Assembly: GCA_021825295.1 (NCBI GenBank)
Contig: JAKAHV010000006.1
Span: 18,026 to 82,025 of the forward strand
Length of the DNA: 64,000 bases
Source: Nitrospirota bacterium
GTDB lineage: Bacteria > Nitrospirota > Thermodesulfovibrionia > Thermodesulfovibrionales > JdFR-88
Reading direction: 5' to 3'
Numbering within the stretch: position 1 is the stretch's first letter; each line of letters opens with the position of its first letter. Below are positions 6,095 through 6,938 of this stretch, one piece after another. The notes beneath the pieces were generated by a model. That model saw only the letters and a list, made by a program, of their open reading frames with translations, had not been told where the DNA came from and did not search any database. The position numbers and the translations under genes were made by a program.

Positions 6095-6667
6095 TTATTT
6101 TTCTTTTTTCTGCCGTGGAATAGGTTCCGTTTGGTGCTGGAAAGTATCCTTTTCGCAAGCCCCATAAAGATCGGTTGCTTCCAATGGCGAACTAATACGT
6201 AGTAACATCAATTGAGCAGGCACATCAAGACCTGCACGAAGATCGACTGGAATTTTACCGAAATTGGCCATTTCCAAGGTAATAAAACCATCGAAACCAG
6301 GATCAATCTTAGGTGCTGTCACATGAATCGTTATCCCAATTCTGGCCCAGCTTGAGCGCCCTTCCACTAACCCTACCAGATCATTAGGTATGCAAACCCG
6401 CTCTAAAGTTTGTGCCAAAACAAACTGTCCTGGATTAAGACGGAAAGTTTCCGTGTCGGCATGGCTCCAGAGATCAGCTGAACCCCACAAAGAGGGATCA
6501 ACATGAATTGCCGAAAGGAAACCAGGTTTTTCCTTAAAAGTGGTGAATTTTCTACCAAGCCTGAGATCAATAGAAACTTGAGCTATGCTTTCAAGAGCTA
6601 CTTCAGGATTAATCCGAAGCCTTTTTTCAGAAAGATATCGAATAATATCAGGCTTAGATAGCAACAA
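6095..6667 (-). CDS. dcd: dCTP deaminase family protein (minimal, 190 aa)
   Basis: The protein resembles Dcd along its full length, including '[41 protein letters not shown]' with the catalytic-region Ser/Arg and the ITLE Glu. The coding sequence is AT-rich (40% GC on line 6241). Confidence 0.85.
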   Translation of the reverse strand: [190 protein letters not shown]

Positions 6668-6938
6668 ATCTTTCGGCTCTAGACGCGTTATCTACAAAGG
6701 GCCCTGGTGTCACTGATTGCCCTTGGAACTGAACAGTGATTGTGGAATTGTGAATTTCTATGATTACAGCCAGAATTTTAGTCATACCCTCACTAATCGG
6801 CTGTTGGAGAGCCCAGTCTGGAACAAATCCGAGCCACGAACCAGCGGTGGAATTCACACGCACAAGCCTTTCATCAGCAAAGGGACCTGGTTTAACTTCA
6901 CATGGCAACCATATTTTCTGTCCTTTTACTAAATCCAT
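6654..6938 (-). CDS. 94-aa hypothetical protein, translationally coupled to the dcd-like gene
   Basis: An AAGGAGG SD sits 6 nt upstream of the ATG, and the ORF overlaps dcd by 14 nt. It contains an internal duplication (EVKPGPFADERLVRV / SVTPGPFVDNASRAERF). I recognise no family. Confidence 0.65.
   Translation of the reverse strand: MDLVKGQKIWLPCEVKPGPFADERLVRVNSTAGSWLGFVPDWALQQPISEGMTKILAVIIEIHNSTITVQFQGQSVTPGPFVDNASRAERFVAI

Follow-up and report, generated by a model that had tools for sequence, protein, structure and literature searches.

The question raised by this locus is whether two overlapping genes, one of which would be annotated as an ordinary deoxycytidine triphosphate (dCTP) deaminase, serve the housekeeping metabolism of their host, serve a neighbouring element, or form a module of their own. 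The genes are found in a window of 64,000 nucleotides (nt), the whole stretch of DNA analysed here (Nitrospirota bacterium, assembly GCA_021825295.1, contig JAKAHV010000006.1, forward-strand positions 18,026 to 82,025), next to a restriction–modification (R-M) operon. A first-pass annotation of this sequence had proposed that a minimal dCTP deaminase (Dcd) and a protein of 94 amino acids (aa) form a nucleotide-depletion defence or toxin-inhibitor module. The evidence supports this interpretation in part: the genetic predictions that could be tested are borne out, the function at its core stays a proposal and the link to the R-M genes is incidental. Here the pair is regarded as a credible candidate for a new toxin–antitoxin (TA) or anti-phage nucleotide-depletion module. 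Its elements are as follows.

6654..6938, minus strand: small partner gene (94 aa), ATG start, from the open reading frame (ORF) list.
6095..6667, minus strand: dcd-family gene (190 aa), TTG start, from the ORF list.
6654..6667, minus strand: overlap of the small gene and dcd, 14 nt, out of frame, the small-gene stop lying inside the dcd start.
6939..7250, minus strand: AT-rich leader and promoter of the cassette, also the right end of an island described below, from reading of the sequence.

The position of the small-gene stop within the dcd start implies translational coupling; gene callers use an alternative in-frame TTG at 6664, which gives a Dcd of 189 aa. Upstream of the small gene there are a TATAAT (6967-6962, minus strand) and an AAGGAGG Shine-Dalgarno sequence (6951-6945, minus strand), the latter 6 nt from the ATG, and a promoter scan of the cassette leader found no good -35 box. 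The GC content of positions 6001-7000 is 0.409, the minimum of the 64 one-kilobase bins, in a window whose core has 0.55-0.63, and the pair itself has a GC of ~0.44, compared with ~0.59 in the host core. The ORF coordinates and overlap, both sequence signals, the most AT-rich position in the window and the head-to-tail arrangement upstream of the restriction gene res, with a spacer of 104 nt, were all as first described.

The 190-aa protein is a genuine member of the Dcd family, as judged from its sequence and model. It matches the equivalog TIGR02274 (dCTP_deam) over residues 3-183 with 148 bits (cut-off 92.8) and PF22769 (DCD) at 5.7e-33 with 114.6 bits (cut-off 27), and it can be aligned with E. 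coli Dcd (1xs1, 5e-30) and, end to end, with the Dcd:dUTPase (deoxyuridine triphosphatase) of M. tuberculosis. Residues R104, S105, R109, H115, D122 and E132 correspond to R110, S111, R115, H121, D128 and E138 of E. coli and are unchanged in an alignment of 30 relatives. These include the catalytic Ser111, Arg115 and Glu138 (E. coli numbering), present here as S105, R109 and E132, so that the catalytic set is intact, as had been claimed from the catalytic block, and activity is predicted. The AlphaFold2 (AF2) model has a predicted local distance difference test score (pLDDT) of 82.6 and a dUTPase-like beta fold, with template modelling (TM) scores of 0.79-0.80 to E. coli Dcd 1xs4 / 2v9x (E ~1e-16), at 38-40% identity. 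The protein also matches phrog_1663, and it has no match among the PADLOC defence models. The loop D57-P-S-L-W-x-S-x-D-L-W67 is invariant in the clade and is not found in E. coli Dcd; the block 51-60 has a pLDDT of 55 when modelled alone, and this DPSLWxSxDLW loop is a possible candidate for the docking site of the small protein.

Exceeding the TIGR02274 cut-off, together with the lack of a second dcd within the 64-kb window, would be expected of an ordinary housekeeping dcd preceded by an incidental or leader-like ORF. The upstream ORF, however, encodes a conserved protein that is predicted to fold, and not a leader. No entry of Pfam, NCBIfam, PHROGs, PADLOC or the PDB sequence set is matched by the 94-aa protein, in agreement with its first description as a member of no recognised family, and its AF2 model (pLDDT 90.4) is all-beta, with two three-stranded halves and no significant structural neighbour in PDB or BFVD, the fold comparison that had been suggested for it. 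Its conservation, also put forward for checking, is evident from 17 word-indexed homologues and 268 cluster representatives (50% identity) at E<=1e-3, nearly all of which are stand-alone proteins of 60-135 aa, with none fused to Dcd. The ratio dN/dS is mostly 0.03-0.2 for the small gene and 0.04-0.25 for Dcd, indicating purifying selection on both. The family has the invariant motifs LPCEVKPGPF..E and WLGFVP. In the protein of the window, KPGPFAD is found at residues 16-22 and TPGPFVD at 76-82, the basis on which an internal duplication had been claimed; both PGPF copies are present and the model has two beta-rich halves, but only the first copy is kept family-wide and the duplication is therefore not a conserved sequence feature. 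On sequence and model, the 94-aa protein is a new, previously undescribed, folded family rather than a leader peptide.

The two genes form an obligate unit. All small-protein homologues examined lie directly upstream of a DCD gene, as do the remote members P0235 and P0154, so that the constant adjacency to dcd-like genes suggested earlier is seen; among species-representative genomes found with the small-protein profile, the small gene is upstream of dcd in ~30 of 38. In the reverse direction, 80 metagenome loci were collected by Dcd peptides only and scanned with the hidden Markov model of the small protein, the count being restricted to full-length, non-redundant dcd genes preceded by 300 nt or more of sequence. 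A small ORF is directly upstream in 44 of 44 such independently found Dcd relatives, down to 42% Dcd identity. The two genes overlap at all loci, by 20 nt (75 loci), 14 nt (11), 41 nt (10), 4 nt (8) or 29 nt (8), and the pairwise divergences of the small protein and Dcd correlate with r=0.75 (59 pairs). One of the two remote members is a tandem-duplicated form from a TARA marine contig (L136, 109-2477), where two small-protein domains are fused in one 213-aa ORF; DCD comes next, and after it SocA_Panacea, a 117-aa partner of the latter and an N6_N4 methyltransferase gene.

Decay of the unit, on the other hand, is one-sided. The loci were grouped in lineages with module DNA at least 90% identical, giving 85 non-redundant module lineages, of which 62 have both genes intact, 12 have an intact small gene with dcd broken or missing, 2 have both genes degraded and 9 are uninformative, most of these with one gene cut by a contig end. 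Counted by species, Dcd is broken or absent in 8 of the 34 found via the small gene, whereas the small gene is missing from none of the 44 loci found via Dcd (Fisher p=7.7e-4). Were the small gene broken at half the rate of Dcd, as expected from its length, zero losses would have P=0.004. Such a pattern is expected if loss of the small gene with an intact Dcd is harmful, which is the signature of an antitoxin or inhibitor, and it is suggestive of this role for the small gene. Two cases, both of recent date, illustrate the process. In L016 and three other samples (L120-L122), dcd is frameshifted by the loss of 2 nt in a (CA)4 run (L016 10531-10547), and an allele 99.5% identical to that of L016 (L072/L100, from different soil samples) has an intact dcd; most of dcd is deleted in L038, compared with L039. 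The (CA)4 run could be the place of a simple mutation or a slippage-prone on/off site, either being possible. Among the remains of the cassette, an orphan small gene lies between a 1642-aa AAA_16/NACHT-like STAND-type ATPase and a DUF488 protein (L020 4267-11326), another adjoins an RVT_1-like (reverse-transcriptase-like) protein (L041 7981-10850), and the first 55 residues of a Dcd are fused to a DUF429 domain (L026 10272-11360).

The cassette is accessory; it is shown to be dispensable and to move among phyla and into genomic contexts that have nothing in common, and it is best explained as autonomous. Around modules with 90-96% DNA identity the flanks are unrelated in L018/L095, L025/L055, L035/L029/L090, L026/L019 and L107/L111, the shared homology starting 60-300 nt upstream of the small gene and ending with the stop codon of dcd; at loci with syntenic flanks, conservation is higher in the module (98%) than in the flanks (88-93%). 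The GC of the module falls below that of the surrounding ±5 kb at 53 of 56 non-redundant loci, the average difference being 7.3 points (sign test 8e-13). Most homologous cassettes have their own -35/-10-like boxes and a GGAGG Shine-Dalgarno sequence, and no recurrent third gene beside the pair was found across loci.

Several observations concern the leaders of these cassettes and additional copies of them. In a divergent subclade (L110, L116, L117, L123, L127-L131) a tandem GGCGAAAA-N4-5-GCGAAAA repeat is conserved in the 5' leader, ~20-60 nt ahead of the small-gene ATG; it could be an operator or an RNA element and is not present in the clade of the window. In L018, L021, L024 and L035 a TTGACA-type promoter lies ~110 nt ahead of the small gene; the leader that comes after it (~90 nt) is conserved, includes a GGCAG...CTGCC stem as well as a CCGCCGGAGGCAAC box, and may be a cis-regulatory RNA. 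Degenerate extra copies are represented by a C-terminal Dcd fragment directly upstream of an intact cassette (L025 9052-9348), a truncated second small gene on another contig of the same metagenome-assembled genome (L050), and a frameshifted small gene that lies 3 kb away from a complete cassette (L075 2580-2855).

In the genome studied here, whose HisS homologues assign the host to the Nitrospirota, the cassette lies in an inserted island. Three related Nitrospirota contigs (L137-L139), whose HisS proteins are 86, 80 and 76% identical to that of the window, have the gene order SpoIID-DUF2905-QueH and then YggS-ProC-YggT-DivIVA-HisS, with a queH-yggS gap that contains no genes. The DNA homology to the closest relative, L137, starts at position 7917 of the window, and short intergenic matches to L138 start at 7257, which makes everything left of ~7250 an inserted island. 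Besides the pair, the island has res, a DUF2283 pair and mod and, beyond the window (L010 10001-20285), genes for ParE, AAA_14/DUF4143 and Zeta toxin. None of the 38 module-carrying species is annotated as Nitrospirota, and the nearest relatives of the Dcd of the window (72% identity) are from Thermoanaerobaculia (Acidobacteriota). The absence of the pair from the syntenic queH-yggS site of the three relatives agrees with the horizontal acquisition that had been proposed for it. The dcd of the window has neither the conserved position nor the host-like composition of a core-genome dcd, and the same absence, the GC difference, the acidobacterial affinity of the enzyme, the unrelated flanks of the cassette elsewhere and the breakage of Dcd in many species all speak against a housekeeping gene with an incidental upstream ORF; this explanation is largely refuted and has very little probability left.

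The remaining features of the island and its edge are as follows.

3021..5990, minus strand: res, BPTD_3080-family restriction endonuclease (NF046055, 1217 bits), outside the conserved module.
2504..3102, minus strand: overlapping genes for a 129-aa and a 73-aa (DUF2283) protein, a TA-like pair between res and mod, from ORFs and domain match.
1..2491, minus strand: mod, N6_N4 DNA methyltransferase, which runs past the window start (PF01555 assigned in L010).
7368..7802, plus strand: divergent 144-aa ORF at the island edge, with weak HTH_23 and Sigma70_r4 helix-turn-helix (HTH) matches.

The pair had first been described as lying next to the R-M operon, and a functional tie could be envisaged in which the pair supplies or removes a nucleotide needed by the R-M system. 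The pair is co-oriented with res, which lies 104 nt downstream, and in one further lineage, L009, the pair adjoins genes of the same R-M family, along with a helicase (the Mod of L009 is 49% identical to that of the window). These are, however, the only 2 of the 85 lineages with this R-M family; the R-M genes of L009 are divergently oriented, a promoter-like site at 6053-6024 (minus strand) separates dcd from res, and the GC of the pair differs from that of the R-M genes. Adjacency to R-M genes did not hold up as a general property, a functional tie is very improbable, and res and mod are considered fellow passengers of the island rather than functional partners of the pair. In the homologous R-M system of L009, res and mod overlap directly with no genes in between, and the 129-aa and DUF2283 pair of the window resembles a TA-like insertion within a BPTD_3080-type R-M operon. 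The 144-aa HTH ORF is missing from the related contigs and is not kept beside the module at other loci. Its flanks in the window (7257-7329 and 7831-7913) match queH-yggS intergenic DNA of the relatives as well as L138 7174-7434 and 18754-19050, which suggests a small repeated intergenic element, and the HTH ORF sits in a window-specific stretch between the two flanking segments.

The neighbours of the pair at other loci were tallied as 136 proteins at ±1 gene and 108 mostly at ±2, for a total of 244. The commonest families, by raw counts, are SocA/Panacea (3), type I, type II and MmeI-type methyltransferases, Uma2 and DUF2283, and further AAA_14/DUF4143, IS1595 transposases and DndE. At single loci the pair is found beside BrnT and HicA, beside Bro-N and a transposase, and beside a Panacea pair with a methyltransferase. 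The association with defence and TA genes is judged modest.

A phage or other mobile element could also be the beneficiary, with the pair brought by prophages as an auxiliary metabolic gene for deoxyuridine triphosphate (dUTP) or deoxythymidine triphosphate (dTTP) supply, or as a counter-defence gene. The Dcd matches phrog_1663, phage dCTP deaminases are common according to the literature, and in one IMG/VR contig the pair lies directly after a CI-like repressor (HTH_3 and Peptidase_S24), with RusA nearby. Among 2.9 million viral contigs, however, that contig gave the single hit, searches of 50,697 phage and 72,556 plasmid records with the small protein gave none, and phage genes are not near most loci; the position beside a repressor moreover suggests expression in the lysogen and not a replication gene. 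A role in the service of the element is improbable.

The reading proposed here, which falls a little short of being probable, is that the small protein keeps Dcd in check and that the pair serves as a TA-like or defence cassette. Depletion of dCTP is a proven anti-phage mechanism. The 94-aa beta protein would bind the Dcd trimer and hold it inactive or restrained, as an antitoxin does; upon loss or displacement of the partner, which could be triggered by loss of the cassette, by phage shut-off of host expression or by a phage protein, Dcd would convert dCTP to dUTP (or dUMP). The draining of dCTP and the flooding of the cell with deoxyuridine nucleotides would then stall DNA replication of both the invader and the cell. 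The pair would in this way constitute a protein-controlled (type II-like) addiction or abortive-infection module, and its effector would be a dCTP deaminase of the dUTPase fold, unlike the zinc deaminases known so far. A more specific version, in which such cassettes make up a new family of protein-controlled nucleotide-depletion modules and a beta antitoxin clamps the Dcd trimer, perhaps via DPSLWxSxDLW, until Dcd is freed on phage attack or cassette loss, is possible and somewhat more doubtful. A fold known from housekeeping would on this version have been turned into an abortive-infection or addiction effector, and the modules would be common among uncultured soil Acidobacteriota, Binatia and their relatives.

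A number of observations weigh against a toxic or defensive role. Neither protein matches a PADLOC or known TA model, comparison with PDB and BFVD gave no recognisable DNA-binding or antitoxin fold for the small protein, and the immediate neighbours of the pair are mostly diverse, ordinary metabolic genes. Dcd keeps H115 and V116, the equivalents of E. coli H121 and V122, which are linked to dTTP feedback; the enzyme may therefore be self-limiting and not very toxic, and it is otherwise not distinguishable from housekeeping Dcd. Nearest-neighbour relationships of Dcd partly track taxonomy, so that the spread of the cassette is partly vertical. The charge and isoelectric point of the two proteins do not follow the pattern of an acidic antitoxin and a basic toxin.

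Many of these observations would be accounted for by a serious rival, an accessory, non-toxic nucleotide-metabolism cassette that tunes dCTP/dTTP pools in the genomes into which it has come, where the small protein would be a positive or structural partner of Dcd (for instance a specificity subunit, an allosteric regulator or a factor for its assembly). It agrees with a Dcd that is canonical at the equivalog level and keeps its feedback-associated residues, with the many loci amid metabolic genes and with the zero matches to defence or TA models, and an obligatory activator would likewise agree with the finding that Dcd is never seen without its upstream partner. It leaves unexplained why the small gene stays intact after Dcd has been destroyed or deleted in 8 of 34 species, why a metabolic gene should be so mobile, low in GC and often pseudogenised, and why the pair is sited by a prophage CI repressor or in TA/R-M islands. 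It is judged rather unlikely, and restraint of a potentially harmful Dcd by its partner is preferred here.

If the proposal of a restrained Dcd is true, the annotation "ordinary dCTP deaminase" conceals, in hundreds of soil lineages, an effector that belongs to a selfish or immune module and is controlled by a hitherto undescribed protein family. A second, unrelated enzyme fold would then join nucleotide-depletion immunity, a new proteinaceous inhibitor of dUTPase-fold enzymes would be at hand, and metabolic models built from metagenomes would have to be cautious in counting these genes as core metabolism. Should the pair prove non-toxic, the small protein, strictly coupled to Dcd, would still represent a new regulatory subunit for a textbook enzyme.

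Compared with known systems, the cassette Dcd has the same length, fold and catalytic Ser/Arg/Glu as the housekeeping enzymes (E. coli 1XS1; M. tuberculosis Dcd:dUTPase 2QXX). Unlike them, it is always coupled to an overlapping upstream small gene, is mobile, low in GC and often pseudogenised, and has the clade-specific invariant DPSLWxSxDLW loop.

The published defensive dCTP deaminases and AvcD reportedly combine, in one protein, a zinc cytidine/dCMP-deaminase fold with a kinase-like or NTPase domain; AvcI is said to be an RNA. The cassette Dcd differs from those enzymes in its dUTPase-like fold, in having no extra domain and in having a protein as its partner. The kinship with them that the first-pass annotation had drawn stands as a functional analogy and extends neither to the fold nor to a PADLOC match. 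The proposed outcome, deamination of deoxycytidine nucleotides that starves the phage, is the same as in Tal et al. and Hsueh et al., the latter also presenting AvcID as a two-part toxin/antitoxin arrangement. Membership of the pair in the known defensive dCTP deaminases or AvcID was ruled out from the dUTPase-like fold and the lack of a PADLOC match. An AvcI-like RNA antitoxin was likewise ruled out, since the partner is a protein under purifying selection and positions 5900-7400 have no Rfam match for an RNA partner or leader element. A "dUTPase" domain is among the unvalidated predicted defence domains of DefensePredictor (PMC13092281); the same superfamily is thus flagged there as an immune candidate, but the pair of Dcd and small partner is not described. 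Apart from this prediction, full-text literature searches turned up only the zinc-deaminase systems and no account of TA or defence modules that pair a Dcd-fold enzyme with a small protein, in line with the novelty that had been claimed for the combination of a Dcd core and a small protein partner.

That a trimeric dUTPase fold can be bound and inhibited by a protein is known from the Stl repressors of staphylococcal pathogenicity islands, and the structure search with the Dcd model gave the Stl-dUTPase complexes 7PWX and 8P8O among its matches. Stl itself is larger and helical, a repressor of the HTH type, and dUTPase acts there as the anti-repressor. The 94-aa beta protein, by contrast, is unrelated to Stl, and the genetic logic is different.

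With type II TA modules the pair shares a small upstream gene that overlaps a larger one, in the same orientation and with its own promoter, as well as a patchy mobile distribution, the company of TA and R-M genes and orphan small genes that outlive the larger gene. Unlike in those modules, neither protein has a toxin or antitoxin match in Pfam, NCBIfam, PADLOC or PHROGs, and the small protein shows no DNA-binding domain. With no homology to a type II module, and with toxicity and neutralisation only proposed here, the pair has the architecture and the population behaviour of one.

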